Positions 6,532-38,968 of a stretch of DNA of 64,000 bases are shown here, piece after piece (position 1 is the stretch's first letter; every line of letters starts with the position of its first letter). Both the position numbers and the translations under genes were made by a program. The DNA comes from Terriglobia bacterium (GTDB taxonomy: Bacteria > Acidobacteriota > Terriglobia > 2-12-FULL-54-10): the NCBI GenBank assembly GCA_963666975.2, contig CAXVYR010000002.1:288001-352000 (forward strand), read 5' to 3'. A model generated the notes under the pieces. It made no database searches. It was not told the origin of the DNA and worked only from the letters and a program-made list of their open reading frames with translations.

Positions 6532-6538
6532 GTGAACG

Positions 6539-17122: not shown

Positions 17123-17159
17123 GCTAGACCAATTTCACCGTTAGTGTATAGCATATCCA

Positions 17160-18283
17160 CAGTGGCTGAGTTGTCTTTGCGTTTCGACGCGCTCTACGCT
17201 CGGCGGGGACGGCCGTCGAAGCCTCCGGAGCAGTTGATCCGGGCGCTGCTGTTGCAAGTGCTGTATGCGATCCGCAGCGAGCGGCAACTGATGGAGCGGA
17301 TCAAGTATGATCTGCTGTTCCGCTGGTTCGTGGGCTTAGGAATCGATGAGCAGGAATGGGACGCCACGGTATTCACCAAGAATCGGGACCGGTTGCTGGG
17401 CGGCGCGGTCTCGCAACGGTTGCTGGAAGCGGTGCTGGAGCAGGCCCGGAGCCAGGACTTGTTGAGCGAGGAGCATTTCACGGTGGACGGGACGATCCTG
17501 GAAGCCTGGGCCAGCCGGAACAGCTTTGTGCCCAAAGACCCAGCCACGGTGGTGGGGACGGGAGCGCGGGGGAGGAAGTGTTTGCGGGACACGCATGAGT
17601 CGAAGACCGACCCGCAAGCACGCTTATATAAGAAGAGCATGGCGGGCGAAGCCAGACCGAGCTACCTGGGGCATGTGCTGATCGAGAATCGCAAGGGGCT
17701 GGTGGTAGCCGCCTGTGCCACGCAGTCCAGCACGACGGCGGAGCGGGAGGCGGCCCTGGCGATGCTGGACGAGATGGGTCTGCGGCCAGAGAAGATTCCG
17801 CGAACCGGCCGGCGCATCACGCTGGGGGCGGACAAGTTGTATCAGGAGCGGAAGTTTATCGAAGGGCTGCGGCGACGCCAGGTGGTCCCGCATGTGGCCG
17901 AGTACGAGCCCTCGGCGTACTGGCCGAATTTTCTGACCGAGGCGGAACGGAACGCTCCGGGGTTTGCACTCAGCCAGAAGAAACGCAAATTGGTGGAGAG
18001 AGTGTTCGGTTGGGGCAAGCTGGACAGCGTCATGCGCAAAATCAAGTTGCACGGACTGGCTCGGGTGGACTGGTTCTTTCGTTTCCTAGCCACCGCCCAC
18101 GATCTGGTGCGGATGGTGAAGTTGGTTCCGGCGCAGTAAGCGCAGGGAGTAGTGTCTCTGCACGGAGGAAATAGGCCCGTGCCGAGGTGGAAATCCTATG
18201 CAGAACTGCGGCAAAACCCGAAGAAAGTGACCACTGAAAAAATCCACAGCCAACGCGAGCGATTTTTTCAGCAGCCTGTTTAG
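17160..18283 (+). mobile_element. IS5-family element, 5'-truncated (transposase ORF ends at 18139)
   Basis: YARRGRPS.PPEQL.RALLLQ..Y.IRSERQL, FTVDGT, TDPQARL, LGADK.Y and RKLVERVFGW; right-end-like TTTTTCAGCAGCCTGTTTAG at about 18264-18283; the N-terminus is missing. Confidence 0.85.
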
Positions 18284-18637: not shown

Positions 18638-20530
18638 TCACCATTGCGCGGCCTGCCCACCAAGCTCTACCTGGGCTCCGGTCGGCTCCATGTTCCACTC
18701 GCGTGCCAAAGAGGGAACCAGGTGTACCAGCTTGCCACCCACCATCGTCATCAAAACCCGCAGCTTGGGGATGTCATCCACCGGAACCGTCAGGTAGTCC
18801 CTATTGAGTACTGCCAAGTCCGCCCATTTACCCGGCTCGAGCGACCCCAGCACATCTTCCCGCAGCGTCCCGTAAGCCGCCCAGAGCGTCGCCGACTTCA
18901 ACATCGCTTCCCGGCTGATTGCCTGCTGAGGAGCTATGACGTTCCCGTTCATATCCTTTCGGGTTATGCCGGAATAGAGAACCTGGAAGTAGGTTAGGTC
19001 CGTGTATCCAATCGGCCGGTCAATTTCCACACTATTCATGATCCCGGCATCATAGAGAGCTTTGCGCGGAACTACTTGGTTGGCTCCTCGCTCCCCATAA
19101 TCGTCCATGATCTTCTTTCCGCTTCCTTCCCAAATGTAGAAGTCCCAACCACTGCCCATAATGCCCAGCTTCTGGTAGCGCGGAATCTGGTCCGGGCGGG
19201 GATACATTGCCATATGCTCAGTGACGTGGCGCTTGGCGCGGATCTCATCCAGTGTCATGCCAGCATCTTTGCTGGCCTTTTCGATGATGTCGAGGATGAG
19301 ATCAATTTCCCCGTCGGCCATGATGTGATCCCCGGCCAGCCGTCCGCCAGCTTTTATATATTCATAAAGCGCTCGCGAAACATCGGGGTTGGTATATTGA
19401 CACTTTCTTTCGCGCTGCTTCACTTTCGGCGAAGTGCCGGGGAGCTTGCTGCAATTCATGCCCATGTTCGGAACCATTCCTGTCGTCCAGAAGTAGTCCG
19501 AGCCATGTCCGAGCCGGCTGGCTTGAGCCCGGACAAAGTATGGATCGAAAAAGAAATCATTTCGGTACGGCCAAAACCAAGCCCACGCAAACCGGATAGA
19601 CATCTGGCCCTGACGGGACAGCGAGTCATAAGCTTGAATCGCACCTCCCGTATAGAGCGCCGTGGCATTGAGGGTCTGCCCGTAACCCGCCATCCAGGAC
19701 AGTCCCAGCCGATAAATTTCCTTCAGAACCTCGGGGGGGTAAAGAACATCTTGTTCGGGATAGCGATAGCAGACGGCACAGTAACCAGTTTTTTCAACGC
19801 TTCCTTCCCCCGCGCGGGAACCCACCAAGTCATCCAGAGTTCCTGCCTCCGGCTCTGGAAGAAAATAATTTATTTGATCTCCATAGAATTTCTTGGTTTC
19901 TTCCAGCGCCCTCTGGTTCAACACCGCCCCGACAAAACCACCGCGCACAATCACCGGATTATCGGGAGCAGCCAGATCCAGGTGCTCCTTGGTGATCTGC
20001 TGCCCTAAAATACCCATAATCTGGTCTCGCCACTGATATTGTTTCCCATACAGCATACTGATCCGAATCCACTGGCCGGGCTTGGCCTTGAGGACCGCCT
20101 CCTCCAAAACACGCGGAAATTTTTGCAACTGCTCGTCGGGTGGATCTTCCAAGAACCGCTCGATGTGTATATCGTCGGTGACCACTTTTTTGATTATATA
20201 CGGATTCAGCAGGTCCCAGTCCTGCGGGTGATCGTGCGTCGCCCCGAAGCCCGGAGTTACCGTCCTCCCCTTCAGGTCAATGGATCGGGTGCCGCTGCCC
20301 GCCAGGCGGCGAACCTCGGCGTTGCTTCCCACCGCGACGATTTTTCCATCCCGAATTGCAATCGCCTGAGCAATGGTCCCTATGTTCGCATTGACCTCAT
20401 GGTTGTCCACCGTCACGATCTTTCCATTGTGCAGAATCGTATCCGGCGCCTGCTGGGCCCAAACGGGGCTCTGTGCAGCCCAGACAACACACACCAATAT
20501 CGCCATTCCCCAAAAGAGTGGACTCTTCAT
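18638..20530 (-). CDS. Secreted amidohydrolase-3 (YtcJ-like) paralog A1, last of the tandem array
   Basis: Signal peptide ending VWA-QQ; ILHNGKIVTVD, IDLKGRTV.PG, THDHP, CAVC, RHVTEH, EIDRP and GSLEPGKWADL. Confidence 0.88.
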   Translation of the reverse strand: MKSPLFWGMAILVCVVWAAQSPVWAQQAPDTILHNGKIVTVDNHEVNANIGTIAQAIAIRDGKIVAVGSNAEVRRLAGSGTRSIDLKGRTVTPGFGATHDHPQDWDLLNPYIIKKVVTDDIHIERFLEDPPDEQLQKFPRVLEEAVLKAKPGQWIRISMLYGKQYQWRDQIMGILGQQITKEHLDLAAPDNPVIVRGGFVGAVLNQRALEETKKFYGDQINYFLPEPEAGTLDDLVGSRAGEGSVEKTGYCAVCYRYPEQDVLYPPEVLKEIYRLGLSWMAGYGQTLNATALYTGGAIQAYDSLSRQGQMSIRFAWAWFWPYRNDFFFDPYFVRAQASRLGHGSDYFWTTGMVPNMGMNCSKLPGTSPKVKQRERKCQYTNPDVSRALYEYIKAGGRLAGDHIMADGEIDLILDIIEKASKDAGMTLDEIRAKRHVTEHMAMYPRPDQIPRYQKLGIMGSGWDFYIWEGSGKKIMDDYGERGANQVVPRKALYDAGIMNSVEIDRPIGYTDLTYFQVLYSGITRKDMNGNVIAPQQAISREAMLKSATLWAAYGTLREDVLGSLEPGKWADLAVLNRDYLTVPVDDIPKLRVLMTMVGGKLVHLVPSLAREWNMEPTGAQVELGGQAAQW

Positions 20531-20569
20531 AATTCACCACCTTAAATTTAAGCAGTTTGCTAAAAAAGA

Positions 20570-20602
20570 CAGGCCGGACGGAATGCCGCTTCCGTCCGCC
20601 TG
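20570..20602 (-). terminator. Intergenic stem-loop followed by a U-tract (terminator/attenuator-like)
   Basis: Minus strand reads CAGGCGGACGGAAgcggcaTTCCGTCCGGCCTG-TCTTTTTT; homologous spacers at about 22560-22650, 24680-24820 and 26720-26780. Confidence 0.55.
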
Positions 20603-20672
20603 CGGACCCGTACCCTCAAACCCCGAAATCCAACTGATCACTGCCCCGACTACCTCGTTCTACCAGGAAAAC

Positions 20673-22544
20673 CTACCATTGCGCAGCGAGTCCGCCAAGC
20701 TCCACTTGGGCTCCGGTCGGCTCCATGTTCAACTCGCGGGCCAGAGAGGGAACCAGATGTATCGTTTTGCCACCCACCATGGTCATCAAAACCCGCAGCT
20801 TGGGGACCTCCTCTACCGGAACCGTCAGGTAGTCCTTGTCGAGCACCACCAGGTCCGCCCATTTACCCGGCTCCAGCGACCCGAGCACATCTTCCCGCTT
20901 CACCCCATAGGCCGCCCAGAGCGTCGCCGACTTCAACATCGCCTGCCGGTCCACCGCCTGTTGCGGCGCGGTTACCTTCCCGTTCTGATCCTTCCGGGTA
21001 ATACCGGAATAGAGAACCTGGAAGTAGGTCAGGTTGGTATATCCGATGGGCCGGTCAATCTCAACACTGTTCATGATCCCAGCCTCATAGAGACTCTTGC
21101 GAGGCACCACCTGCATCGCGCCCCGCTCGCCGTAATCCCGCAGGACCTGCTGCGCGCTTCCTTCCCAGATGTAGAAGTCCCAGCCGCTGGTCATCATGCC
21201 CAACTCTTGATACCGGGGGATTTGGTCCGGTCGCGGATACATAGCCATATGTTCGGTGATATGGCGCTTAGCCCGAATCTCCTCCGGCGTCATGCCGCCA
21301 TCTCGGCTCGCCCTCTCGATGGTGTCCAAGACCAGATCAATTTCTCCATCTCCCATTTGATGATCTCCGAACAGCCGTCCGCCCGCCTTGATGTATTCAT
21401 AAAGAGCTTTCACCATTTTAGGATTGGCGAACCGGCATTTGGCTTCCCGCTGCTTGACCTCCGGGGAAGTGCCGGGCAGCTTGCTGCAGCCGCCGCCCAT
21501 CATCGAAGTCATGCCGGCCACCCAGAAATGATCCGTGCCCGTGTCCTCCCGGCTGACGGCGGCTTGCACAAAATAAGGATCAGAGAACAAGTCATTTCGA
21601 AACGGCCAGAACCAGCCCCAGGGAAGCCGAATGGCCATCTGATCCCGGCGATCCAGGCTGCTGTAGGCGCGAATCGCGCCTCCCGTGTACAGCGCCGTCG
21701 CATTGAGGGTGACCCCATACCCCCCCATCCAGGACAACCCCAGGCGGTAGATATCCTGCAATACCTTGGACGGGTAGAGCACGTCCTGTTCGACATACCG
21801 ATAGCAGGTGGAACAAACCCCCGATTGATCGAAGTCCGTCGGGGCGCCCCCGAGATCCCCCAGCGGCGAGTAGAGAAACTTGTCCCATTCCCCCGCATAG
21901 AACTTTTTCGTCTCCTCAATCGCTCTCTGGTTCATCAAAAGTCCGACAAACCCCCCGCGCACAATCACTGGATTCTGAGGAGCCGCCAAGTCCAGCATCT
22001 GTTTGTTAATCTGCCGGCCTAAAAACGCTGAAACCTCCTCTCTCCACCTGTATTCCTCTCCGTACAGCATACTAATCCGAATCCATTGGCCGGGCCTGGC
22101 CTTCTGGACTGCCTCCTCCAAAACCCGCGGAAATTGTTGCAACTGTTGCTGAGGAGGATCGTTCAAGAAACGCTCGATGTGCATATCGTCGGTGACTACT
22201 TTCTTGACGATATACGGGTTCAGGGGGTCCCAGTCCGCCGGATGGTCGTGCGTCGCGCCAAAGCCCGGAGCCACCATCCTCCCTTTCAGATCCAGGGACT
22301 GCGTGTTGCTGCCCGCCAGGCGGCGAATCTCGGCGTTGCTGCCCACCGCGACGATTCTTCCATCCCGGATTGCAATCGCCTGAGCAATGGTCCCCAAATT
22401 GGAATCGACTTCATGGTTGTCCACCGTCACGATCTTTCCATTGTGCAGAATCGTATCCGGCGCCTGCTGGGCCCAAACGGAGCTCTGTGCAGCCCAGATA
22501 ACACAAACAAGTATCGCAACTCCAAAAAGACGTGTGCTTTTCAT
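20673..22544 (-). CDS. Secreted amidohydrolase-3 paralog A2
   Basis: Same architecture as A1; THDHP, CSTC, RHITEH, EIDRP. Confidence 0.88.
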   Translation of the reverse strand: MKSTRLFGVAILVCVIWAAQSSVWAQQAPDTILHNGKIVTVDNHEVDSNLGTIAQAIAIRDGRIVAVGSNAEIRRLAGSNTQSLDLKGRMVAPGFGATHDHPADWDPLNPYIVKKVVTDDMHIERFLNDPPQQQLQQFPRVLEEAVQKARPGQWIRISMLYGEEYRWREEVSAFLGRQINKQMLDLAAPQNPVIVRGGFVGLLMNQRAIEETKKFYAGEWDKFLYSPLGDLGGAPTDFDQSGVCSTCYRYVEQDVLYPSKVLQDIYRLGLSWMGGYGVTLNATALYTGGAIRAYSSLDRRDQMAIRLPWGWFWPFRNDLFSDPYFVQAAVSREDTGTDHFWVAGMTSMMGGGCSKLPGTSPEVKQREAKCRFANPKMVKALYEYIKAGGRLFGDHQMGDGEIDLVLDTIERASRDGGMTPEEIRAKRHITEHMAMYPRPDQIPRYQELGMMTSGWDFYIWEGSAQQVLRDYGERGAMQVVPRKSLYEAGIMNSVEIDRPIGYTNLTYFQVLYSGITRKDQNGKVTAPQQAVDRQAMLKSATLWAAYGVKREDVLGSLEPGKWADLVVLDKDYLTVPVEEVPKLRVLMTMVGGKTIHLVPSLARELNMEPTGAQVELGGLAAQW

Positions 22545-22655
22545 AAATTACCACCTTGAATTATAAGCAGTTTGCTAAGAAAGCCAGGCCGAACGGAATG
22601 TCCGCTTCCGCTTGGCAGTTTGTGACTTCAAACCTCCGAGAGCCAACTAACCTTT

Positions 22656-22735
22656 AGTAGGTTGTTGAAAAACACCATTTACCCGCTCCCTCACCCCTCG
22701 GCTTCGCTCGGGGCAGGTTTCGCGGCCCGGACTAT
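22656..22735. repeat. REP-like insertion in the A3-A2 spacer
   Basis: TAGTAGGTTGTTGAAAAAC...CCGCTCCCTCAC...TCGCGGCCCGGA is absent from the homologous spacers and resembles the CCGAGCCGCG...GGGAGCGG REPs at 43 kb and 62.9 kb. Confidence 0.5.
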
Positions 22736-22788
22736 ACACGAACTGTGAAAGTGCTTTAATTACTCGTTCCAATTCCTCGCCGGAAAAC

Positions 22789-24669
22789 TTACCATTGCGC
22801 TGCTGCCCCCCCCAGTTCTACCTGGGCTCCGGTCGGCTCCATACCCCATTCGCGGGCAAGGGATGGAACTAGATGGATCGGTTTGCCGCCCACCAGGGTC
22901 AGCAGCACGCGCAGTTTGGCAATCTCTTCCACTGGAACCGTCAGGTAGTCCTTGTCGAGCACCACCAGGTCCGCCCATTTGCCCGGCTCCAGCGACCCTA
23001 GCACATCTTCCCGCATCACCCCGTAGGCCCCCCAGAGAGTCGCCGACTTCAACATCGCCCGCCGGTCCACCGCCTGTTGCGGCGCGGTTACCTTCCCGTT
23101 CTGATCCTTCCGGGTGATGCCGGAATAGAGAACCTGGAAGTACGTCAGGTCGGTGTATCCGATGGGCCGGTCAATCTCGACACTGTTCATGATCCCAGCC
23201 TCATAGAGAGCCTTGCGAGGCACCACCTGCATCGCGCCCCGCTCGCCGTAATCCCGCAGGACCTGCTGCGCGCTTCCTTCCCAAATATAGAAGTCCCAGC
23301 CGCTGGTCATTATGCCCAGCTTTTTGTATCGCGGGATCTGGTCCGGCCTCGGATACATGGCCATGTGCTCGGTGACATGGCGCTTGGAATGAATCTCTTC
23401 CAGCGTCATGCCGGCATCTTCGCTGGCCTTCTCGATGATGTCCAGGATGAGATCAATTTCCCCATCCGCCATCACGTGATCTCCGGCCAGCCGTCCGCCC
23501 GCCTTGATGTATTCATAAAGAGCCTTCGAAACTGTCGGGTCGGCAAATCCGCACTCCATTTCCCGCTCCTTGACCTCCGGGGAAGTGCCGGGCAGCTTGC
23601 TGCAGTCCATCCCCATGTGAGAAGTCATTCCACTCGACCAGAAATAGTCCGAGCCCGTGCCCACGCGGCTGACTTCAGCTTGAAGAAAGTAGGGGTCCGA
23701 AAAGAAGTCGTTTCGATAAGGCCAGAACCAGCCCCAGGCAAAGCGAATGGCCATCTGCTCCCGGCGATCCAGGCTGTTGTAGGCGCGAATCGCGCCACCT
23801 GTGTACAGCGACGTCGCGTTGAGGGTAACCCCGTACCCCCCCATCCAGGTCAGCCCCGCACGGTAGATTTCCCGCAACACCTCGGGCGGGTAGAGCACAT
23901 CCTGTTCCACCTGCCGGTAGCAGACGACACAGGTTCCTGTTTTCTCAAAGCTTTCCAGCGTTACACCCATACCCACAAGGTCTTCCAGCGGATGGTAAGA
24001 AAACTTCTTCGCCTCCCCTGCATAAAACTCTTTTACCAAGTCAATGGCTTTTTGGTTCAACAAAGCTCCGACAAATCCGCCTCGGACCAGCACCGGATTG
24101 TTGGGAGCAGCCAGATCCAGCATCTGTTTGTTAATCTGCCGCCCCAGAAAGCCTGAGATTTCATTTCCCCACCGGTATTCTTTCCCATAAAGCAGACTAA
24201 TTCGGATCCATTGGCCGGGCTTGGCCTTGCGGACTGCCTCCTCTAATACCCTCGGAAATTGTTGCAACTGTTGATCGGGCGGATCGTTCAAAAACCGCTC
24301 AATGTGCATATCATCGGTGACCACTTTTCCTACGATATGCGGGTTCAGCGGGTCCCAGTCCTGCGGGTGATCGTGCGTGGCCCCAAAGCCCGGAGCCACC
24401 ATCCTCCCTTTCAGATCCAGGGACTGCGTGTTGCTGCCCGCCAAGCGGCGAATCTCGGCGTTGCTGCCCACCGCGACGATTTTCCCATCCCGGATTGCAA
24501 TCGCCTGAGCAATGGTCCCCAAATTGGAATCGACTTCATGGTTGTCCACCGTCACGATCTTTCCATTGTGAAGAATTGTATCCGGCGCCTGCTGGGCCCG
24601 AACGGTGCTCTGTGCAGTCCAGATGACACACACTAATACCGCAACTCCCCAAAAATGTAGGCTCTTCAT
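22789..24669 (-). CDS. Secreted amidohydrolase-3 paralog A3
   Basis: Same architecture; THDHP, CVVC, RHVTEH, EIDRP. Confidence 0.88.
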   Translation of the reverse strand: MKSLHFWGVAVLVCVIWTAQSTVRAQQAPDTILHNGKIVTVDNHEVDSNLGTIAQAIAIRDGKIVAVGSNAEIRRLAGSNTQSLDLKGRMVAPGFGATHDHPQDWDPLNPHIVGKVVTDDMHIERFLNDPPDQQLQQFPRVLEEAVRKAKPGQWIRISLLYGKEYRWGNEISGFLGRQINKQMLDLAAPNNPVLVRGGFVGALLNQKAIDLVKEFYAGEAKKFSYHPLEDLVGMGVTLESFEKTGTCVVCYRQVEQDVLYPPEVLREIYRAGLTWMGGYGVTLNATSLYTGGAIRAYNSLDRREQMAIRFAWGWFWPYRNDFFSDPYFLQAEVSRVGTGSDYFWSSGMTSHMGMDCSKLPGTSPEVKEREMECGFADPTVSKALYEYIKAGGRLAGDHVMADGEIDLILDIIEKASEDAGMTLEEIHSKRHVTEHMAMYPRPDQIPRYKKLGIMTSGWDFYIWEGSAQQVLRDYGERGAMQVVPRKALYEAGIMNSVEIDRPIGYTDLTYFQVLYSGITRKDQNGKVTAPQQAVDRRAMLKSATLWGAYGVMREDVLGSLEPGKWADLVVLDKDYLTVPVEEIAKLRVLLTLVGGKPIHLVPSLAREWGMEPTGAQVELGGAAAQW

Positions 24670-24823
24670 AATTCACCACCTCGAATTGTAAGCAGTTCGC
24701 TAAGAAAGTCAGACCAAACGGAATGCCGCTTCCGTCCGCCTGCAGACCGTGCTTTCAAACCTCGAAATCCAACGGATTTCTGGCCCGGCTATCTCGGTTC
24801 TACCAGGGTTCTACCAGGAAAAC

Positions 24824-26701
24824 CTACCATTGCGCAGCCGGTCCGCCGAGTTCTACCTGAGCCCCCGTGGGTTGCATGCCTAACTCGCGGGCCAGGGATG
24901 GAACCAAATGGACCACTTTGCCGCCCACCATAGTCATCAGGACCCGAACATTCAGAATGTCATCCACGGGAATGGTCAGGTAGTCTCTGTCCAATATCAC
25001 CAGGTCTGCCCATTTATTGGGCTCCAGGGAGCCCATGCGATCCTCGCGCATAGCATAATAAGCTCCCCAAATCGTCGCCGACTTGAGTATGGTTTCGCGG
25101 TTCACCGCCTGATTGGGGGCCGTTATATTGCCATCCTGATCCTTCCGGGTAATCCCTGCATAGAGGACTGTGAAGAAAGTCAGGTCGGTGTATCCAATGG
25201 GCCGGTCAATTTCGATGCTTGTCCTCACGCCGGCATCGAGCAGACTCTTCCGCGGGATCACCCATTGTGCCGCCTCCTCTCCATAGTCCCTCAATACCTC
25301 CTGCCCTCTTCCTTCCCAAATGAACAGGTCCCAGCCGCCCGTCTGTATACCCAGGTTCTTGATCCGAGGGATCTGGTCGGGACGAGGATTCATCCCCATA
25401 TGGTCATAGGTGTGCCGCTTCGCCCGAATCTCCTCTATTGTCATGCCCGCGTCTTTGCTGGCCTGCTCAATAATATCCAGAACGTGATCGATCTCCTTGT
25501 CGCCGACCATATGCGCTCCGGCGTAGCGGCCGCCGTCCTTGATGTATGCATACAAGATATCCCGATTCTCCTTGCCGCTGGGAGTATCCGGATCAAACTT
25601 GCAACTACCTTCCCGCTGTTTCACTTCGGGGGAGGTGCCCGGAAGCGTGCTGCAATTTCTGCCGTAGTCGGATGGGATGGCTCCGTTCAGCCAGAAGTAA
25701 TCTGATCCTCTGCCCTTCATGGTGATTATAAGCCTGCGAAGATAGGGGTCGAAGAGGATATTCTTCCGTTCCGGCCAGAAGTAAGTCCAGGGAAGCCGGA
25801 GCGACATCTCTCCGCTGCGGTCCAGCGCATCGTAGGCCGCAATCGCCCCGGCCGTATACATATTCGATGCGTTCATGGTGACTCCATAGCCTGCCCACCA
25901 GGATGTCCCCAAACGGTAGATTTCCTGCAACACATCCGGCGGGTAGAGCACGTCCTGTTCAAACTCCCGGTAACAGACCGCGCAGGTTCCGGTTTCCTCC
26001 ATGCGCGCGTTCACCGGCCTGTCGATCATGTCAAACTTTTCCCATTCCGCACCGTAATACTTCTTTACTTCGTCAATGGCATTCTGGTTTGCCACCATCC
26101 CGACAAAGCCCGCACGAACGATCACCGGATTATTGGGAGCAGCCAGATCCAGCATTTGCTTGGTTATCTGGCGCCCGAGATACCCGGAGATCCTCGTCCT
26201 CCCCCGATACTCTTTCCCGAACAGCATGCTGATCCGAATCCATTGGCCGGGCCGGGCCTTCCGGACTGCCTCCTCGAGAACTCGCGGAAACCTCTGGAGT
26301 TGCTGCTCGGGGGAATCTTCCAGGAACCGCTCCAGGTGCAGATCGTCTGTGACCACCTTTTTTACGATGTAGGGATTCAACGGGTCCCAGTCGGTGGGGT
26401 GATCGTGTGTGGCTGCCATGCCCGGCAGCACCGTCCGCCCCTTCAGGTCAATGCTCCGGGTATTGGGGCCCGCCAAGGCCCGAACCTGAGCGTTGGTTCC
26501 CACGGCCAGGATCGCATCTCCCCGGACAGCCAAAGCCTGAACGATGGCGCCTATGTTTGCATTGACCTCATGGTTGTCCACCGTCACGATCTTTCCGTTG
26601 TAGAGAATGGTATCCGGCGCTTGCTGGGCCCGGAGGGGACTCTGCACAGCGCAAAGGACACACATTGTTACCCCAACCCGCCAAATCCATCGACTTATCA
26701 T
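24824..26701 (-). CDS. Secreted amidohydrolase-3 paralog A4
   Basis: Start reassigned to ATG 26701 (MISRWIW..., signal peptide aligns with the paralogs); THDHP, CAVC, RHTYDH, EIDRP. Confidence 0.88.
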   Translation of the reverse strand: MISRWIWRVGVTMCVLCAVQSPLRAQQAPDTILYNGKIVTVDNHEVNANIGAIVQALAVRGDAILAVGTNAQVRALAGPNTRSIDLKGRTVLPGMAATHDHPTDWDPLNPYIVKKVVTDDLHLERFLEDSPEQQLQRFPRVLEEAVRKARPGQWIRISMLFGKEYRGRTRISGYLGRQITKQMLDLAAPNNPVIVRAGFVGMVANQNAIDEVKKYYGAEWEKFDMIDRPVNARMEETGTCAVCYREFEQDVLYPPDVLQEIYRLGTSWWAGYGVTMNASNMYTAGAIAAYDALDRSGEMSLRLPWTYFWPERKNILFDPYLRRLIITMKGRGSDYFWLNGAIPSDYGRNCSTLPGTSPEVKQREGSCKFDPDTPSGKENRDILYAYIKDGGRYAGAHMVGDKEIDHVLDIIEQASKDAGMTIEEIRAKRHTYDHMGMNPRPDQIPRIKNLGIQTGGWDLFIWEGRGQEVLRDYGEEAAQWVIPRKSLLDAGVRTSIEIDRPIGYTDLTFFTVLYAGITRKDQDGNITAPNQAVNRETILKSATIWGAYYAMREDRMGSLEPNKWADLVILDRDYLTIPVDDILNVRVLMTMVGGKVVHLVPSLARELGMQPTGAQVELGGPAAQW

Positions 26702-26870
26702 AACTTTTAACCTTTCAGCTATTGTGGGCAGCCTACTAAGAAAACCAGGCTGGCAGGATGCCGTTCCCACCAGCCTGGCGAATTGTGACTTCAAAGCTCC
26801 CCGGCTAACTCCCGGCTAACTCGATTGTTAATCTCTCGGTTAATTTCTTGCTACCGTCCTCAGGGGAAAC

Positions 26871-28736: not shown

Positions 28737-28920
28737 AAATTTACCTCATCCTTTCATGTCGCAGCCTTTTAAAAATATGCGAGAAGTCGTGGACATCTTT
28801 ATCCTTGTCCTTAGATTGGCAAGAGGCCCCCGCATAGGGAGTACGTGGAAGAGTTGGAGAATGCGGAGACGTATCGTTCCCTTATCTGAGAGACCTCTAG
28901 CCGAAGCGTTGGAAAAGTGT

Positions 28921-28944
28921 AGGAGGAAGCCGAAGCTTCCTCCT
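28921..28944 (-). terminator. 10-bp stem with a C(UUCG)G tetraloop just downstream of the A6 stop
   Basis: Minus strand AGGAGGAAGC-TTCG-GCTTCCTCCT; weak U-tract, so possibly an mRNA stabiliser rather than a terminator. Confidence 0.55.
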
Positions 28945-28968
28945 TGCAAAACACCCTACTTACCATAG

Positions 28969-30831
28969 CTACCATTTGGAAGGTAATCCGCCGAGCTCCA
29001 CCTGTGCCCCCATGGGCTGCACCCCGATCTCGCGTGCCATCGAGGGAACCAAGTGCACGATCTTGCCTCCTGTCATGGTCATCAACACCCGCAGCTTCGG
29101 AATGTCATCCACGGGGATGGTCAAGTAATCTTTGTCTAAAACGATCAGGTCTGCCAACTTGCCGGGCTCCAACGAGCCGAGGTCATCTTCCCTGAATACA
29201 TAATAGGAACCCCAGGTTGTGGATACCTTCAGCATCGTTTCCCGGTCCACCCGCTGCTCGGGAGCAATCACATTTCCGTTCATGTCCCGGCGGGTAATTC
29301 CGGTGTGAAGGACCTGGAACATGTTCAGGTCGGTGTAACCCAAAGGCCGGTCCAACTCCAGCGTATTCATAATCTGGTTGGTAAGCAACCTCTTCCGGGG
29401 TGTCACCCATCCCGCAGCTTTTTCCCCGTACTCGCGCAGGATTCTCTCCCCGTTGCCTTCCCAGAGATAGAAGTCCCAGTTGCCCACCATCATACCCAGA
29501 TTCTTGATGCGCACCGCCTGATCATCCCTGGGAGACATCTGTCCATGATCGTAAGCATGCCGTTTGTCCCGAATCTGCGCCAGCGTCATCCCGGCGTCCT
29601 TGCTCCCCTGCTCGATGACATCCAGCAGGTGATCAATGTCCTTGTCCCCGCCGGTGTGGATGAGCGCGATCCGTCCGCCTGCCTTGACAAAGTTGTAAGT
29701 CCATTTGCGCATATCCGAACCGGGGGCGAGGGTGCAACCCGGCTCTCTTGCCTTCACATCCGGGGAAGTGCCCGGCAAGGTGGAGCAGTCAAAGGTCATC
29801 ATGGGAGAGGCGCCGACAAACCAGAAGTAATCCGTGCCTTCTCCCTGGCGAGTCGCGATATCAGCCAAAAAGTAGGGATCTTCGAAAGCTTTGTTAAAGG
29901 GCGGCCAGAAATATCCCCAGGGCAGGCGTATGGGCATTCTGTCTTCCCTTTGCAAGGTCCGGTAGCCGCGGATCTGCGCCGGGGCGTACAACATAGTGCC
30001 GTCGGTGGTGACGCCGTAGCCAGCCAGCCAAGACAGGCCATACTCGTTCATCTTCGTCCATACTTCGGGGTGATCCTTGTAGTAGATGATGTCCGGCTCG
30101 ATGAAGCGATAGATGACAGAGCCAGTGCCTGTCTCCTCGAAATTCCGTTCGGTGGCGAAAATATCCCCGACCCCGTCTCCCCAGAATTTTCTCATCTCCT
30201 CCAGGGCCCGTTCGTTGACCACCGCTCCCACAAAGCCGGCGCGGACCAGCACCGGATTATTCGGAGCCGCCAAGTCCAGATGCTGCTTGGTAATCTGGTT
30301 CCCCAACAGCGCTGTAATCTCTGCCCTATACCGATACTGTCTTCCAAAGGTCAGCGTAATGCGAACCCATTGACCCGGCTTGGCCGCACGGACCGCCTCC
30401 TCCAAAACACGCGGGAACTTCTGCAACGTCTCATCAGGAGGATCCTCCAAAAACCGTTCAATGTGGATATCGTCGGTCACCACTGCTTTTACAATGTATG
30501 GATTCAGCGGGTCCCAGTCCTGCGGGTGATCATGCGTATTGATGATGCCCGGCATAACCATCCGCCCTTTTAGGTCAATCACCTTCGTGCCCGATCCCGC
30601 CATGGCTCGAATCCGGGTATTGTTGCCCACGTGCAAGATTTTTCCATCCTTGATATGGATGGCTTGCGCAATGGTGCCCAGGTTCGAGGTGAACGATACG
30701 TTATCCACTGTCACAATTTTCCCGTTGTAAAGAATCGTATCCGAGCTTTGTTGGGCGCTCACCGGGCTACCTAGAAACGGTAACCAGACGCTGATCCACA
30801 ACACAAAAGCAGATAACTTATTTATACTCAT
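28969..30831 (-). CDS. Secreted amidohydrolase-3 paralog A6
   Basis: Signal peptide; THDHP, HTGGD, RHAYDH, ELDRP. Confidence 0.88.
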   Translation of the reverse strand: MSINKLSAFVLWISVWLPFLGSPVSAQQSSDTILYNGKIVTVDNVSFTSNLGTIAQAIHIKDGKILHVGNNTRIRAMAGSGTKVIDLKGRMVMPGIINTHDHPQDWDPLNPYIVKAVVTDDIHIERFLEDPPDETLQKFPRVLEEAVRAAKPGQWVRITLTFGRQYRYRAEITALLGNQITKQHLDLAAPNNPVLVRAGFVGAVVNERALEEMRKFWGDGVGDIFATERNFEETGTGSVIYRFIEPDIIYYKDHPEVWTKMNEYGLSWLAGYGVTTDGTMLYAPAQIRGYRTLQREDRMPIRLPWGYFWPPFNKAFEDPYFLADIATRQGEGTDYFWFVGASPMMTFDCSTLPGTSPDVKAREPGCTLAPGSDMRKWTYNFVKAGGRIALIHTGGDKDIDHLLDVIEQGSKDAGMTLAQIRDKRHAYDHGQMSPRDDQAVRIKNLGMMVGNWDFYLWEGNGERILREYGEKAAGWVTPRKRLLTNQIMNTLELDRPLGYTDLNMFQVLHTGITRRDMNGNVIAPEQRVDRETMLKVSTTWGSYYVFREDDLGSLEPGKLADLIVLDKDYLTIPVDDIPKLRVLMTMTGGKIVHLVPSMAREIGVQPMGAQVELGGLPSKW

Positions 30832-31104
30832 TGCTTCAGTACCTTTCCTAAACTAAGCTGCAGGTTGTTCGCCGCCTTGCAGAAAAATCGCCGGGCAATC
30901 GGAGAGATTTGCCCGTAGCCGGACTAAAGGACGCTCAGAAAGTATACCACTAATCCATGTCTTTTAGCGCATTAGGGCAGAGGAGATTTCTTCCCCGATC
31001 CCCGCTTGGATAGATGCCGAAATTCCTGTCTGCTTCGCCGGCGTATTGGAAGAGGCTGCTCAAGCACAAACCGAGGCCGGCACATTAAGGAAAGAATTTT
31101 TCAT

Positions 31105-32985
31105 TTACCACTGAGCAGCAGGACCAAGTAAAGCTTGGGCACCGGTCGGTTGCATGCCAATTTCCCGAGCCACCGACGGAACCAAGTGAACGGCTTTGCC
31201 TCCCACCACGGTCATGAGCACTCGGATGTTCTCAATGTCGTTTTCGGGTATTGTCAAGTAATCCCGATCGAGCACGATGAAATCGGCCCACTTCCCGGGT
31301 TCAAGCGAACCCAGTTCGTTCTCTTTCAGGATGTAATACGCACCCCAGGTCGTCGCCGTTTTCAGGGCGAGTTCCCGGCTGATCTTTTGATTCTGCCCGT
31401 AGACTTTGCCATCCCACGCCTTCCGATTGATCACACGCGCCAATGTCCAGAAGATGGTCAGATTGGTTGTGGACAATGCCCGATCGACTTCAAAGCCGCT
31501 GGGGATTTGGGCCTCGATCAACGACTTTTTCGGAACCACCCACTCCAGCGCTTTTTCCCCATAGGTTTCCAATATGCCAGGAGAGGCCTGATAGATTTCA
31601 AAAGCATCTCCCCCCAGGACCAGACCCAATTCCTTAATGAGCGGCAGCTGATCCGGCCGGGGGGACATCACATTGTGGTCGAACGTGTGTCTTTTGGCGC
31701 GGATCTGTTCTGGTGTGAAACCAGCCTCCTTGCTGGCTTTTGAAATAATATCGATTATGTTGTCGATGTCTCTGTCACCCACAGTATGGGTTACCGCGTA
31801 CCGGCCACCCATTTTCACCCACTGATACAGCATTTCGTAGTTTCTGGTTCCGGGATCATAAGCGCATGTTCGACGGCGTTGGGCTGCTTGCTCCGACAAG
31901 TCCACACGGGGCACCAAAGTGGTGCATCCAGCACCTACGGTTTGGGCGCCCCGGGAGCCGCTGTGCCAAAAATAGTCATTCCCGTTGCCGTTCATGGAAA
32001 TCAGCGCACTCACGTAGTACTCGTCATTATTGAAAAAGTCTTCGCGCCAATTCCAGGCCCACATGTTCCGGACCGGCATCTGCCCGCTTCGGGACAGGTC
32101 GTCAAACACCCTCAGGTTGGCCGGATCGTATGCCTGCGAGGCAAAGGCGGTCATTCCATAGCCCGCCCACCAAGTCAGGCCCAGGCGCTGGACCTCCTTC
32201 AACTCTTTATAGTGGTCCCGCATGACCACATCACTGAACATCCAGCGCATGGGGTTTGCCCCACCGGCCCCAGTCTCATGATCAATTTGACTGGCTACAT
32301 CCTCCGGGAATGTCCGGTCAGCTATTTCCAGCGCCTTGGAATTCAAAACGAAACGAGTAAAAGCGTCCCGCAACAGGACCGGATTGTTGGCAGCCACGGC
32401 ATCCAGTTGTGCTTTTGTGATCTTGAGAGGGGTACCGAACAAGCTATCGTCGAACTGGCCGAATCCGCCATTCCCTCCCGTGCTGTACTCATAGTTCTTA
32501 CCCAAGGGGAAGACCAGGTAAACCCACTGTCCCGGCTTGGCCTTGCCGAGAGCTTCCCGCAAGATTGCGGGATACGCCTGGAGTTGTTCCTGGGGACTGC
32601 CCTCCAGAACCCGTGTAACTACAATATCGTCCGTGAGGACATGCCGGATGACGTAGGGATTGACGGGGCTCCAATCAAAAGGGTGTTCGTGAACGCTGAT
32701 CAGTCCGGGCAGAACCGTGCGGCCCTTCAGGTCAATCACCCGTGTGTTGGGCCCGGCCATAGCCCGAATCTCGGCGTTGTTGCCCACATGCAGGATCGTA
32801 TCCCCTCTGACGTGCATGGCCTGCGCAATGGTTCCGAGGGAAGAGGTGTAGCTCGTGTCGTCCACCGTGACAATTTTCGCGTTGAAGTAAATCGTGTCGG
32901 AATCTTGTTGTGCCTGGCTGACGCGCCCAGACAACAGCAAGATACTCAGCAGAAGCAAAAAACACCCGCTCCTTCTGTTACGCAT
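31105..32985 (-). CDS. Secreted amidohydrolase-3 paralog A7 (first and most divergent of the array)
   Basis: Start at ATG 32985 (AAGGAAG RBS, MRNRRSGCFLLLL signal peptide); VHEHP, HTVGD, RHTFDH, EVDRA. Confidence 0.88.
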   Translation of the reverse strand: MRNRRSGCFLLLLSILLLSGRVSQAQQDSDTIYFNAKIVTVDDTSYTSSLGTIAQAMHVRGDTILHVGNNAEIRAMAGPNTRVIDLKGRTVLPGLISVHEHPFDWSPVNPYVIRHVLTDDIVVTRVLEGSPQEQLQAYPAILREALGKAKPGQWVYLVFPLGKNYEYSTGGNGGFGQFDDSLFGTPLKITKAQLDAVAANNPVLLRDAFTRFVLNSKALEIADRTFPEDVASQIDHETGAGGANPMRWMFSDVVMRDHYKELKEVQRLGLTWWAGYGMTAFASQAYDPANLRVFDDLSRSGQMPVRNMWAWNWREDFFNNDEYYVSALISMNGNGNDYFWHSGSRGAQTVGAGCTTLVPRVDLSEQAAQRRRTCAYDPGTRNYEMLYQWVKMGGRYAVTHTVGDRDIDNIIDIISKASKEAGFTPEQIRAKRHTFDHNVMSPRPDQLPLIKELGLVLGGDAFEIYQASPGILETYGEKALEWVVPKKSLIEAQIPSGFEVDRALSTTNLTIFWTLARVINRKAWDGKVYGQNQKISRELALKTATTWGAYYILKENELGSLEPGKWADFIVLDRDYLTIPENDIENIRVLMTVVGGKAVHLVPSVAREIGMQPTGAQALLGPAAQW

Positions 32986-33043
32986 GGTCACTTCCTTAAA
33001 CTTCAGATGTAATGAACGGAGTTTGTAAACCGATTCTCTGTGC

Positions 33044-33085
33044 AAAAAAGGTGGGCAAAGATTTGGCTAACCAAATCTTTGCCCA
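33044..33085 (-). terminator. Strong hairpin plus U-tract between the TBDR and the amidohydrolase array
   Basis: 15-bp perfect stem TGGGCAAAGATTTGG-ctaa-CCAAATCTTTGCCCA (33052-33085), followed on the minus strand by CCTTTTTT. Confidence 0.7.
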
Positions 33086-33102
33086 AGCAAGGCCCAATCC
33101 AA

Positions 33103-36100
33103 TCAGAAGGCGAACTTCAACCCGAACTGGATCTGCCGTGTCGGCAGGCCGGGGAGGGTTTGTGAGATCACTCCGGCGCCACCCCGATCAATTTGCGCAA
33201 ACGGGGGTCGGAAGTGGGCAGTGTTGGTGAGGTTGAAGAACTCCGCCCGAAACTCAAAGTTTCGTTCCTCGCCAAAGGGGAAATTTTTGACTATCGACAA
33301 GTCTAAGTTACGGAGTCCCGGACCGATGAGCGTGTTTCTGCCCGTGGTCCCGTAGAATCCCGTCGTTTGCGGTACGAAGGAACTGGGGTCAAAGTACTGA
33401 TCGATACTTCCCCCCGTCGGGTTATTGTCGGCCCCCTGTACGAGATCCGGGCGGGTGCTGTGAATGATCGCGCCATTATTGGATCGGTTGGTACCCATTC
33501 TTACCGTAAACGGGTTGCCCGGCGATAGCTTCACGATTCCATTTAATCGCCAGCCGTTAATCAATCCTCTGGCGAATAGGTTATCGAAGTCGCCGGTGGG
33601 AAACTCGTAACCAAAACTGGTCACAAAGTTGTGTCCGATGTGATAACTAGCCAAGCTGCGATCGTTCTTGTGGTCATCCGGGTCCTGAGAGCCACCGACC
33701 CCATTGGTAGCGGACGATATTGTATCCCATCGATCAAAACTCTCATCGATAGTCTTGGACCAGGTATAAGCGACCGCCACTTGAATTCCCGACTGGAAGC
33801 GGCGATTCAAATTCACTTGTAACGAGTTGTAAAACGACTGCGCCCAACTGGATTGCCGTGCATCCCAAATAACGCTGGAATTTCGACGGACTGTGGTGCC
33901 GCCGGCGCACCCATCCATTGGTTGAAAGCACCTGCGGCCATCAGAAAACGTCCCCGGTTCCTTAGTGTTGGCAGCTCTCAGAAAGTCCAGGTGATTTCCT
34001 CTGGACCCTGCGTAAGCCACTGTCAATGAAGTGCCCGGTATTAGCTCGCGCTGCAGCGTCAGGTTGTACTGCATGAGGTAGGCGTGGTCGCGGTCATAAT
34101 CCATTGTCTGAACTCCCGGCCTTCCGGCAGCGCGAGGGTCTATCCCTCGGAAGACTCCCAAGAAGGTCGGGTTAGTGACGTTCCCAATGGTGTAAATGGG
34201 AGGTTGGCGAACCGCCGTGATGAACCAAGTGTTGGAAAGCATATGCATTCGGAAGGTTCCGAACCCCCCGCGCAGAGCGGTCTTGCCGTCTCCTTTCAAA
34301 TCCCAGGCGAAGCCGACGCGCGGCTGAATATTGATGGCCTGCGAGGCGTTCTTATAGTACGGTCCGATGGTGGGCTCTAGAGCCCGTACGTGCCGAAAGT
34401 TTGCTAAACGGTTATGATTTTCTGTTGGAACCGTGGACATCTCCCATCGCACGCCCAAGTTCAAAGTGAAGCCCGGTTTCACTTGCCAACTATCATCGAT
34501 AAACGTCCCAATCATCCACTGGCGCATACTCCGGACCGCGGCGCCCCTGGGGTCTCCACTCCCCAAGGCACCCTGCCATAGATCCGGCATGCCTTGCAAG
34601 AACGCCACCACATTGGGAAATCGGTAGGCTCCTCCCAAATTCTGGGGTGCGGCGAGATTGCTCTGATATCGCTTGAGGAGCGCTCCAAATTTAAGCTGGT
34701 GTGACCCTTGGGTGGTAGTCAGGTCGTCCTGGTAATGGAAGTTGTTTGCTATGTAGATCTTCGGCAAGTTGGTAGCAGTCCCAATAGACGTCAGAGCGCC
34801 ACCCAGGAAACCGATGCCGGCACTTTGGCCAAAGGGGAGCCCGGTGGGCGGATTAAAGGAAGGCAGGCCCTCCGCGAAAAGCGGTTCGTCGTCCACATTG
34901 TAGTTCATGCGGGTGAAGCCAACCCTAGCCGTATTGATCCATGTGGGAGAGAAGATGTGGTTCCACTCCGCCGTAGCGTACTGCCATCTGTTTCTTCCCA
35001 AGCCCTCGGCTATAGCGATGTTATTACTCGGAAATTTCTGGGTGGAGTGGTCAAAGGTGTAGCGGACAAAGAAATTATCGGAATCCGAGAAGCGGTGATC
35101 CACGCGGGCCATCCAATAAAATTGATCGATCGGCTCGCTAAAAGAGCTTACAAACTGTGCTGTGCCATCCCCAAAATTTCTCCCATTCGCCTGCGGCGTG
35201 AGAGCGATGAACGGCGCGATATCCGGAGCGACACCGACATTCCCACCTGCCGAATCCGGAAGGATACCCATCCGGGCGTTGGCATCCAGGACTCTCCCTA
35301 TGACGGCTTCGCCCCTGCGTTGCCGCAAAAGTTCAACCGTCGAAAAGAAGAACGTCCGGTCTTGGATAACGGGCCCTCCCACAGCGCCCCCGAACTGGTT
35401 GCGCTTAAACCCTGGCCTTTCCTTGCCGGCGGCATTGAGGAAATAGTCGTTGGCATCCAACTGGCTGTTGCGGTGAAATTCGAACAACGAGCCGTGAATC
35501 GAATTGGTGCCGGACATCGTGACCGAATTGACTACCGCTCCGCCCTGGCTGGGGTGGGCGGCGCTGTAGCTATTGGTCAACAGAGAAAACTCTCGAACAG
35601 CTTCGATGCCCAATCCGCCGCCCGTCACTGCTCCTGGGGTTTGACGGTGAACATCCATGACCTCCGTTCCATCCACCAAGTACAGATTGGCGCTCACCCT
35701 GGCCCCGCTTACGGAAATTCTTTTTCCGGAACCGGTGCCGGTGTTTTGCCGAGTCGTACCTCCCGTGCTCAATGCCTGATTCGCGCCCGTTTGCAGGAGC
35801 ACAAGCTGGGTAAAATCGCGGCCATTCAAGGGCAAATTGCGAATCTGTTCATCGTCAACCAGAGCCGAAAGAGTGGAGGTTGTGGTCGCCACCACGGGAG
35901 CTTCTCCTGTTACCTCCACACTCTCCGTGACCGCCCCTACGCGGAGCGAGATATTGACGGTCGCTTCCAGGCCAACCGTTAATCTGATCCCTGGCCGAAC
36001 AGCAGCTTGAAATCCCTGCAGTTCCACTCTCAGTTCATAGGTTCCAACCGAAAGCAGCGGCAGGTGATAGACACCTCTGGCGTCTGTCTCCGCGCTGCGC

Positions 36101-36282
36101 GTGGCCCCGGTGTTTTCATTTGTGGTGGTCACAGCCGCCCCAGGAATGACTGCCCCGGTGCCGTCGGTAACCGTGCCGGAAAGCGTTGCGCTGGTTACTT
36201 GGGCATGCCCGATAGAGAAGGGGAGCACCAAAAGAAGCGTCAACAGAATCGGAGTGAAACGCAAAATCCGCCGAGTAGACAT
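33103..36282 (-). CDS. TonB-dependent receptor (Oar-like), complete
   Basis: Start at ATG 36282 (GGAGG RBS); signal peptide; LSGTVTD.TGAVIPGA, LPLNGRDF, SGTN.IHGSLFEFHRN, RNQFGG, FRAEFFN and C-terminal RQIQFGLKFAF. Confidence 0.93.
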   Translation of the reverse strand: MSTRRILRFTPILLTLLLVLPFSIGHAQVTSATLSGTVTDGTGAVIPGAAVTTTNENTGATRSAETDARGVYHLPLLSVGTYELRVELQGFQAAVRPGIRLTVGLEATVNISLRVGAVTESVEVTGEAPVVATTTSTLSALVDDEQIRNLPLNGRDFTQLVLLQTGANQALSTGGTTRQNTGTGSGKRISVSGARVSANLYLVDGTEVMDVHRQTPGAVTGGGLGIEAVREFSLLTNSYSAAHPSQGGAVVNSVTMSGTNSIHGSLFEFHRNSQLDANDYFLNAAGKERPGFKRNQFGGAVGGPVIQDRTFFFSTVELLRQRRGEAVIGRVLDANARMGILPDSAGGNVGVAPDIAPFIALTPQANGRNFGDGTAQFVSSFSEPIDQFYWMARVDHRFSDSDNFFVRYTFDHSTQKFPSNNIAIAEGLGRNRWQYATAEWNHIFSPTWINTARVGFTRMNYNVDDEPLFAEGLPSFNPPTGLPFGQSAGIGFLGGALTSIGTATNLPKIYIANNFHYQDDLTTTQGSHQLKFGALLKRYQSNLAAPQNLGGAYRFPNVVAFLQGMPDLWQGALGSGDPRGAAVRSMRQWMIGTFIDDSWQVKPGFTLNLGVRWEMSTVPTENHNRLANFRHVRALEPTIGPYYKNASQAINIQPRVGFAWDLKGDGKTALRGGFGTFRMHMLSNTWFITAVRQPPIYTIGNVTNPTFLGVFRGIDPRAAGRPGVQTMDYDRDHAYLMQYNLTLQRELIPGTSLTVAYAGSRGNHLDFLRAANTKEPGTFSDGRRCFQPMDGCAGGTTVRRNSSVIWDARQSSWAQSFYNSLQVNLNRRFQSGIQVAVAYTWSKTIDESFDRWDTISSATNGVGGSQDPDDHKNDRSLASYHIGHNFVTSFGYEFPTGDFDNLFARGLINGWRLNGIVKLSPGNPFTVRMGTNRSNNGAIIHSTRPDLVQGADNNPTGGSIDQYFDPSSFVPQTTGFYGTTGRNTLIGPGLRNLDLSIVKNFPFGEERNFEFRAEFFNLTNTAHFRPPFAQIDRGGAGVISQTLPGLPTRQIQFGLKFAF

Positions 36283-36363
36283 AGACTGACCTCCAACATT
36301 AGATAAGATTTTCAATGCTTTTACCAATTATACATATAAAATGTCAAGCTCTTTATCCTCATT

Positions 36364-38773: not shown

Positions 38774-38968
38774 GCTATTTACCTCCTTTTTGAAATTCCG
38801 AAGGCCCGGGAAACGCTACATAATTCCCATCGGCCACCCATGAAAGCATCCTCTCCAAACAGGCGGAAACCAACTATTGTCAGTTGAGTGGCTACAAGCT
38901 GGAAATGCCCGCGCTGAGAAAGGTGTCAGTGATCTTTGGGTCCTTCCTGAAGACAACAATGCAGGGCC

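Follow-up and report, generated by a model that had tools for sequence, protein, structure and literature searches.

Why would a bacterium encode seven consecutive copies of one exported hydrolase directly behind an outer-membrane transporter? This question is raised by a locus in a 64,000-nucleotide stretch of a Terriglobia bacterium genome (assembly GCA_963666975.2, contig CAXVYR010000002.1, positions 288,001 to 352,000), which is called the window below. On the minus strand from 18638 to 36327, an open reading frame (ORF) scan gave eight long ORFs and no other credible genes in between. A sequence-only reading of the window had described a complete TonB receptor followed by seven co-oriented amidohydrolase paralogs over 14.4 kb, and the ORFs and Pfam searches agree with this description. 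In our best reading, the locus is the largest module of a lineage-specific nutrient-scavenging system, in which an Oar/SusC-like transporter is paired with exported amidohydrolases. The probability that a diversified panel of enzymes hydrolyses amide-type organic compounds in the periplasm, coupled to the receptor, is, in our estimate, about 0.5. The eight genes are as follows (aa, amino acids).

33103..36282, minus strand: TonB-dependent transporter, Oar-type; 1059 aa from ATG 36282 (ORF 33103..36327, to a TTG, 1074 aa)
31105..32985, minus strand: A1, exported YtcJ-like amidohydrolase; 626 aa from ATG 32985 (ORF to 33045); most divergent array member
28969..30831, minus strand: A2, exported YtcJ-like amidohydrolase; 620 aa
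26871..28736, minus strand: A3, exported YtcJ-like amidohydrolase; 621 aa
24824..26701, minus strand: A4, exported YtcJ-like amidohydrolase; 625 aa from ATG 26701 (ORF to 26794)
22789..24669, minus strand: A5, exported YtcJ-like amidohydrolase; 626 aa; reference for residue numbering of the family
20673..22544, minus strand: A6, exported YtcJ-like amidohydrolase; 623 aa
18638..20530, minus strand: A7, exported YtcJ-like amidohydrolase; 630 aa; last in the array

The receptor and the array enzymes

In the receptor, a signal peptide is followed by a CarboxypepD_reg N-terminal extension, a TonB-box-like motif, a weak Plug and an OMP_b-brl_4 barrel. Pfam placed PF13620 (CarboxypepD_reg) at residues 48-128 with 77.5-78.6 bits (cut-off, 32.3), and the 838-position barrel model PF25183 (OMP_b-brl_4) at residues 269-1067 with 584.7 bits. 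Judged by eye, the TonB-box-like sequence E(S/T)V.VTGEAP.VETT and the plug motif LPLNGR are present in most of 16 aligned receptor paralogs. Translation likely starts at ATG 36282, with a signal peptide ending in HAQ before V; the ortholog in the congeneric genome G001 is 1059 aa, which equals the length from this ATG. The C-terminal residue is F in 31 of the 33 full-length receptors of the window genome, which also encodes 5 TonB_C proteins above the Pfam cut-off. When the receptor sequence was compared with the PDB, no sequence match was found. The Oar subclass of TonB-dependent transporters is defined, according to a study of Oar, by the PF13620 N-terminal extension (PMC6434023), and by its architecture the receptor is a member of this subclass.

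The array extends from 18638 to 33045, and A1 to A7 are co-oriented with the receptor. PF07969 (Amidohydro_3) matched all seven proteins with 98-132 bits (cut-off, 29.7). A hydrophobic, charged N-terminal signal ending in A-Q-Q and the C-terminal tail (M/V)(E/Q)P.GAQ..LG..W were both found in 7/7, as the sequence-only reading had noticed; it should be mentioned that signal peptides were called throughout by heuristic rules and not by SignalP. Lipoprotein anchoring of A1-A7 was rejected, there being no lipobox common to the seven proteins. An NCBIfam search of the array proteins gave partial matches far under the cut-offs, and thus no named subfamily. Pairwise identity climbs along the array: A1 shares 43-47% with the others, A2 57-59%, A3 and A4 62-67%, and A5, A6 and A7 76-83%. 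The starts of A1 (32985) and A4 (26701) are probably internal ATGs of longer ORFs; in A4, this start is preferred because a terminator-like hairpin (26744..26779) falls inside the TTG-extended ORF. A CxxC motif (e.g. TGTCVVCYR) occurs at residues ~246-249 of A4-A7, within the most variable insert, and is absent from A1-A3.

A 113-sequence family profile aligns end to end with 3icj (E 3.6e-42, positions 43-574) and 3igh (E 2.8e-35), two solved but uncharacterised YtcJ-like structures. Together with the PF07969 scores, these alignments bear out the Amidohydro_3/YtcJ-like identity that had been assigned earlier. The ligand motifs of the family align, in canonical order, to DSHLH, VHAIGD, IEHASL and FSTDSP of 3icj, and the metal ligands are H99 (87/87 of the full-length paralogs in the window genome), H101 (87/87), H398 (86/87), H435 (87/87) and D500 (69/87). 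In these respects the family resembles YtcJ-like enzymes (PF07969; cd01300/COG1574), which also include N-substituted formamide deformylase. It differs from them in length (~620 aa versus ~460-530 aa), in a long variable insert between HxH and strand beta-4, in the added Sec signal peptide and family-specific C-terminal tail, and in the replacement of the beta-4 Lys; to YtcJ-like enzymes with a known substrate, the similarity is weak and partial.

The canonical ligand set is H-x-H...K...H...H...D, as given in a study of molinate hydrolase (PMC4407906). The beta-4 Lys, which forms the carbamylated bridge, is replaced in 87/87 paralogs, and no Lys occurs at 339-357 except for one at 350. Depending on the alignment register, the Lys of the GVKLF sequence in 3igh and 3icj falls on Y342 or on position 349. 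Because the strand-4 Lys is replaced in every paralog under either register, a one-metal or differently bridged centre is likely. According to the same study, molinate hydrolase shows that variation of the metal centre occurs in this group. C356 is kept in 80/87 paralogs and C373 in 66/87; these residues may form a disulfide, and their conservation would be in keeping with an oxidising compartment.

The activities known among YtcJ-like enzymes are hydrolyses of amide-like bonds (C-N or C-S), for example by molinate hydrolase (PMC4407906) and by the secreted bile salt hydrolases discussed below. The profile matched molinate hydrolase, phenylurea hydrolase B, triazine hydrolases and prolidases only weakly and partially, and the matches to pesticide hydrolases in the PDB (E 1e-14 to 1e-8) were confined to the C-terminal part. 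An alternative is defence or detoxification, in which the periplasmic panel would not feed the cell but destroy noxious compounds of amide, carbamate or peptide type, such as antibiotics, toxins and xenobiotics. Of the characterised YtcJ-like enzymes, the two closest by name (molinate hydrolase and phenylurea hydrolase B) act on pesticides, and the neighbours of the family include a glyoxalase/bleomycin-resistance-like protein, a Vgb-lyase-like propeller protein and dienelactone hydrolase. However, the likeness to pesticide hydrolases is as weak and partial as described above, ~92 copies occupying 4% of a 4.2-Mb genome would be a large outlay for defence, and pairing with energy-dependent uptake receptors suits acquisition better than protection. 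Thus, we regard detoxification as very improbable.

Expansion and diversification of the family

The window genome (4.23 Mb in four contigs, 98.9% complete) comes from an uncultured soil or groundwater acidobacterium. A hidden Markov model (HMM) of the family was built from the window paralogs and run on all ORFs of at least 150 aa; ORFs with at least 200 bits were counted as members, and those of at least 560 aa as full-length. This profile search gave 92 family ORFs, 87 of them full-length, which together occupy 169,944 bp (4.0% of the genome). They include an eighth paralog near the array, A0. The sequence-only reading had considered the seven genes by themselves; with 92 paralogs in the genome, the array is not a solitary oddity. 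The 92 paralogs are distributed over 57 arrays or singletons (39 singles, ten pairs, three triplets, three quartets, one five and one seven), and the window array of seven is the largest. About 30 further ORFs match the family HMM more weakly; among them are many Amidohydro_1-type proteins that carry a signal peptide or a lipobox. One copy is split into two ORFs (C4:1288677-1290563), and other pseudogenes and fragments are also present, which points to birth-and-death turnover of the family.

A signal-like hydrophobic N-terminus was found in 86/87 full-length paralogs, and under a stricter rule a signal was called in 77/87 as compared with 559/2769 (20%) of other ORFs. Three subfamilies can be separated by their C-terminal tails. 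The last residue is W, Y or F in 75/87 full-length paralogs, versus 5.7% of other ORFs. The tail motifs are confined to the family in the window genome and are not general in distant relatives. We also considered the tail as a portable sorting tag; this idea was rejected because the tail occurs in this family alone.

How widely is the family distributed? All 13 other genomes of the same taxonomic family gave matches at E<=1e-30, while 17 genomes from ten other families of the class gave none at this threshold. Among 120 further genomes of the phylum (an even sample, at least 80% complete), only G137 reached E<=1e-60. This genome, which belongs to the same phylum and a different family, contains 39 full-length matches and has arrays of up to six genes. 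Tandem arrays were also found in metagenome-assembled genomes (MAGs) labelled Candidatus Acidiferrales, Candidatus Binatia and 'delta proteobacterium'. The named relatives are MAGs of uncultured Acidobacteria/Terriglobia, and several came from groundwater. The family profile matched 1,826 clusters (50% identity) at E<=1e-30 in a library of 1.84 billion representatives, and all clusters obtained with homolog P0063 as the query were of Acidobacteriota and labelled 'amidohydrolase family'. The related genomes compared here are kin and not independent samples.

The age of the array was examined by comparison with G001. In this genome, acetyl-CoA synthetase, A0, an esterase, a glyoxalase-like gene, the receptor and the array are syntenic with the window. 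In a maximum-likelihood tree, each of A1-A7 and A0 pairs with one G001 gene at the same position (UFBoot/SH-aLRT, 98-100). The G001 array has eight copies; the extra one lies between the A4 and A5 orthologs, and its branch is older than the species split, so that this copy has probably been lost in the window genome. The dN/dS values of the ortholog pairs were 0.198 (A1), 0.139 (A2), 0.217 (A3), 0.109 (A4), 0.182 (A5), 0.114 (A6), 0.143 (A7) and 0.110 (A0). As judged from these ratios, every copy examined is under purifying selection, in keeping with the earlier description of the paralogs as diversified. Recent neutral amplification was rejected, because 1:1 orthologs exist and dN/dS is low.

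In a tree of 87 paralogs the array is not monophyletic: A5-A7 cluster together, and A1, A2, A3 and A4 each group with dispersed copies of the genome. Other arrays in the genome likewise mix subclades. In the alignment, 70 columns are constant within ortholog pairs and different among the seven paralog groups. These columns concentrate at positions 161-260 and 281-400 and flank every metal-ligand motif. Such a pattern would fit an enzyme panel with different pockets.

Linkage to receptors and transcription

How often do members of the family stand beside receptors? In the window genome, a receptor gene is no more than 500 bp away from 13/57 arrays, which contain 32/92 genes, whereas in 500 trials with random placement the mean was 3.25 arrays and the highest count was 9. 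Within 5 kb, a receptor was found for 25/57 arrays (random mean 6.7, maximum 17), and receptors are the commonest neighbour family. Viewed from the other side, an amidohydrolase ORF lies within 500 bp of 15/33 full-length receptors, and in 8 of these 15 the enzyme gene is co-oriented with the receptor and downstream of it. Of the 11 receptors with the highest similarity to that of the window, 10 are among the 15. The adjacency is typically tight and on the same strand, with gaps of 25-420 bp. Outside the window genome, a receptor on the same strand and at most 200 bp away was found at 8/79 related loci (7 Acidobacteria assemblies). In G137, a family match stands no farther than 1.5 kb from 5/14 receptor matches (random mean 1.19; 10/2000 trials reach 5). 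Thus, the linkage of receptors to multi-copy enzymes, for which a neighbourhood survey had been suggested, is non-random in this genome and recurs in related MAGs and in a second lineage.

A second receptor-linked battery was found at C4:200000-219999 of the window genome. In this battery, a receptor is followed by six tandem Amidohydro_1 genes (~490 aa), some of which encode lipobox-like signals (LLASC, FLASC) and others none. After these come a CarboxypepD_reg plus Vgb-lyase-like propeller and two YtcJ-like paralogs. The recurrent neighbours of the arrays in general are receptors, transposases, TPR proteins, dienelactone hydrolase and the Vgb-lyase-like propeller protein. Insertion sequence (IS) transposases are the second commonest: the rve type occurs near 17 arrays and the Mutator type near 7, and DDE_Tnp_1_4 also recurs.

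These transposases bring in the alternative that there is no functional coupling, and that two expanded families have piled up in recombination- or IS-prone regions with adjacency as a by-product. At the locus itself, an IS5-like gene abuts A7 where synteny with G001 stops, a decayed receptor remnant adjoins the genes, and the hairpins described below suggest separate transcription units, all of which speaks for this alternative. However, the adjacency of receptors and arrays is above random placement, is tight and same-strand, has been kept between species (G001), and is seen again both with another amidohydrolase family and in G137, a separate lineage; moreover, family members also stand downstream of the receptors that most resemble that of the window. 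Therefore, we consider mere accumulation very unlikely.

The spacers between the co-oriented genes of the locus are 58-273 bp long. Only individually folded hairpins were used as terminator evidence, and three terminator-like hairpins with a U-run were identified:

33052..33085, minus strand: spacer between the receptor stop and A1; -24.5/-25 kcal/mol, z -3.48, 0/200 shuffles as stable
26744..26779, minus strand: spacer A3/A4; -29.2 kcal/mol, z -5.52, 0/200 shuffles as stable
20575..20598, minus strand: spacer A6/A7; -26 kcal/mol, z -2.75, 1/200 shuffles as stable

Hairpins homologous to that of the A3/A4 spacer are present in the A4/A5, A5/A6 and A6/A7 spacers. The A6/A7 hairpin was also considered as a genome-wide repeat, and this was rejected: 2 matches were found at up to 4 mismatches, both in this array. 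Counts of sigma-70 and terminator patterns at the locus were not above those in shuffled sequences.

Between 18300 and 38200, 26-28 of 30 bins are covered by RNA contigs from 4 metatranscriptome libraries of one study, most of these contigs having an identity of at least 99%, and this cover takes in the receptor and all seven paralogs. The bin over the receptor remnant (36892-37555) had zero RNA cover in 4/4 runs. Because this silent internal stretch was uncovered in all four RNA runs, plain carry-over of DNA is disfavoured. In the 4 runs, contig ends fall at 36286-36297, shortly before the start proposed for the receptor. Contigs span the receptor/A1, A2/A3 and A3/A4 spacers, which does not prove single transcripts. 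A contig joint that skips 6199 bp (18754 to 24954) was discounted, since one side of it has only 20 letters.

Comparison with known systems and interpretation

Search of open full-text literature (main texts) gave no description of such a locus, in line with the earlier statement that no characterised locus has this layout. The nearest analogy is to polysaccharide utilization loci (PULs; SusC/SusD) and TonB-receptor carbohydrate loci, in which a transporter with a CarboxypepD_reg-type domain is likewise followed by co-oriented exported hydrolases, with many modules per genome. The window locus differs in having only a receptor and amidohydrolases, without SusD, glycoside hydrolases, a sensor or regulator, or an inner-membrane transporter, and its hydrolases are paralogs of one family and not a mix of families. 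Thus, the locus is analogous in logic to a PUL and is not a member of this class. Of the PUL-like logic proposed from the sequence, the pairing of a receptor with an exported hydrolase battery stands, whereas SusD, a recurrent regulator and an inner-membrane transporter are missing.

The sequence-only reading had also regarded YtcJ-like enzymes as usually cytoplasmic, and this is not general. Secreted metal-dependent bile salt hydrolases of Bilophila wadsworthia are described in a preprint (bioRxiv 10.64898/2026.04.05.716592) as PF07969/YtcJ-like proteins with a Sec signal, which cleave an N-acyl amide outside the cytoplasm. Like the window family, as far as the preprint's description goes and by description rather than by sequence, they occur as several paralogs per genome. 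They differ in being 945 aa long with extra C-terminal domains, and are described beside a type II secretion system and not a TonB-dependent receptor. Because these secreted enzymes have been reported, export of a YtcJ-like family is not unprecedented.

We propose the following mechanism. Organic compounds with amide-type bonds (C-N, or related bonds of carbamates or ureas), for which porins would not suffice because of the compounds' size or scarcity, would cross the outer membrane via the transporter with energy from TonB. In the periplasm, the seven paralogs, with different pockets, would cleave different members of the substrate class. The small products of hydrolysis would then enter the cell by general transporters. 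The periplasmic location, the direction of transport, the bond type or substrate class, and differences in specificity among the paralogs are inferred.

A number of observations weigh against this proposal. In the receptor, the Plug match (PF07715, residues 157-258) is weak, with 15.7 bits against a cut-off of 23.9 (E 0.022). Scattered homologs without receptors had been named beforehand as a finding that would speak against coupling, and these were found in part: for 60/92 paralogs the array is over 500 bp from the nearest receptor, and for 52/92 the distance exceeds 2 kb, with the 13 linked arrays still standing beside them. The survey of neighbour families found no regulator or inner-membrane transporter that recurs near the arrays, and SusD (PF07980) gave 0 matches in the whole window genome but did match in the control, Bacteroides thetaiotaomicron. 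As transposases are frequent neighbours, some of the adjacency could be due to plasticity of these genome regions. Given the hairpins between the receptor and A1 and between several paralogs, the genes may not form a single operon, and the RNA contigs, whose differences in depth were left unused, cannot rank the genes or show expression levels or single transcripts. An Rfam search of 17000-44500 gave no riboswitch, the lone match being sub-threshold and looking like chance. For a common operator, no 9-mer occurred in at least 5 of 16 regions upstream of receptors (control maximum, 3-4). The amidohydrolase superfamily also cleaves C-O, P-O and C-Cl bonds, and 'amide' as the bond type is a best guess. 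The window genome has 4 secretins, given which secretion beyond the periplasm is possible. Finally, transport could run in either direction, because the receptor belongs to the Oar subclass and the single member of it that has been studied is a protein exporter.

This last point leads to an alternative in which the amidohydrolases act at the cell surface or in the medium: either the Oar-type transporter is their exporter, or they leave the cell by a type II system and the products are taken up through the receptor. In Myxococcus xanthus, Oar has a PF13620 extension, a Plug with TonB box, and a barrel; the window receptor shares the extension and the barrel and has a weak Plug match and a TonB-box-like motif. 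As with PopC, the putative partner here is a soluble periplasmic hydrolase; Oar with TonB/ExbBD is reported to be required for secretion of PopC from the periplasm (PMC6434023). In the window family, Sec signals would bring the enzymes to the periplasm, the family-specific tails with an aromatic end could be a recognition element, the loci contain no inner-membrane transporter, and the 4 secretins and the secreted enzymes of Bilophila (bioRxiv 10.64898/2026.04.05.716592) fit export as well. However, secretion by such a receptor has a single experimental precedent in that report on Oar, where PopC is a subtilisin-like protease described as having no signal peptide (PMC6434023), whereas the partners considered here are Sec-exported amidohydrolases encoded beside the receptor. 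Furthermore, a similar N-terminal domain is found on SusC-type importers, most of the amidohydrolase paralogs have no adjacent receptor, and the tails, absent from distant relatives, may simply belong to the fold. Taken together, enzyme secretion seems rather unlikely.

Much of the organic nitrogen in soils, sediments and waters is held to be amide-bound, and the bacteria and enzymes that release it are poorly known. A bolder proposal is that the Oar-type transporters and the exported amidohydrolases of these Acidobacteriota are physical partners, either through enzyme export, which would be a second instance of TonB-dependent protein export and one that spans a whole enzyme family, or through docking by the aromatic-ended tails with direct handover of the substrate; the ~90 genes and ~33 receptors would then form an undescribed modular system that mines amide-bound organic nitrogen. 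We regard this as quite improbable. An uncultured Acidobacteriota family devotes 4% of a small genome to one exported hydrolase family linked to outer-membrane transporters. If the enzymes are a specificity panel, they would define a non-carbohydrate counterpart of PULs, allow the assignment of substrates to a large uncharacterised clade (the 1,826 clusters), and provide dozens of natural enzyme variants for amide, urea or carbamate hydrolysis. If instead the receptor exports the enzymes, TonB-dependent protein secretion would extend beyond the single known case.

Upstream of the receptor, A0 heads a separate unit of three genes (38351-42927, minus strand), which is syntenic in G001:

40996..42927, minus strand: A0, distant paralog (~30% identity) of the short-tail subfamily, with a signal peptide
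38969-40822, minus strand: esterase with two domains (BD-FAE/alpha-beta-hydrolase) and a signal peptide
38351-38773, minus strand: glyoxalase/bleomycin-resistance-like protein

Between this unit and the receptor, a C-terminal receptor remnant on the plus strand (36851-38257) aligns to residues 606-1074 of the intact receptor with 32% identity. It is ~70% identical to full-length receptors elsewhere in the genome, and G001 retains a 64-aa trace of it. On the other side of the locus, an IS5-like DDE transposase gene (DUF772 + DDE_Tnp_1; 17093-18139, plus strand) stands directly after A7, and synteny with G001 ends there. Farther away, the region 2138-13809 encodes a luciferase-like monooxygenase, a 457-aa Amidohydro_1 protein, a xanthine-dehydrogenase-family molybdoenzyme (FAD and large subunits), an MFS transporter and a UbiD-family decarboxylase; this cluster may be a catabolic set for N-heterocycles or aromatic compounds. 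At 46591-52220 (minus strand), a 542-aa ankyrin-repeat protein is followed by a pair of DUF1552 (HXXSHH) and PSCyt/PSD (DUF1585/1587/1588/1592/1595) proteins.

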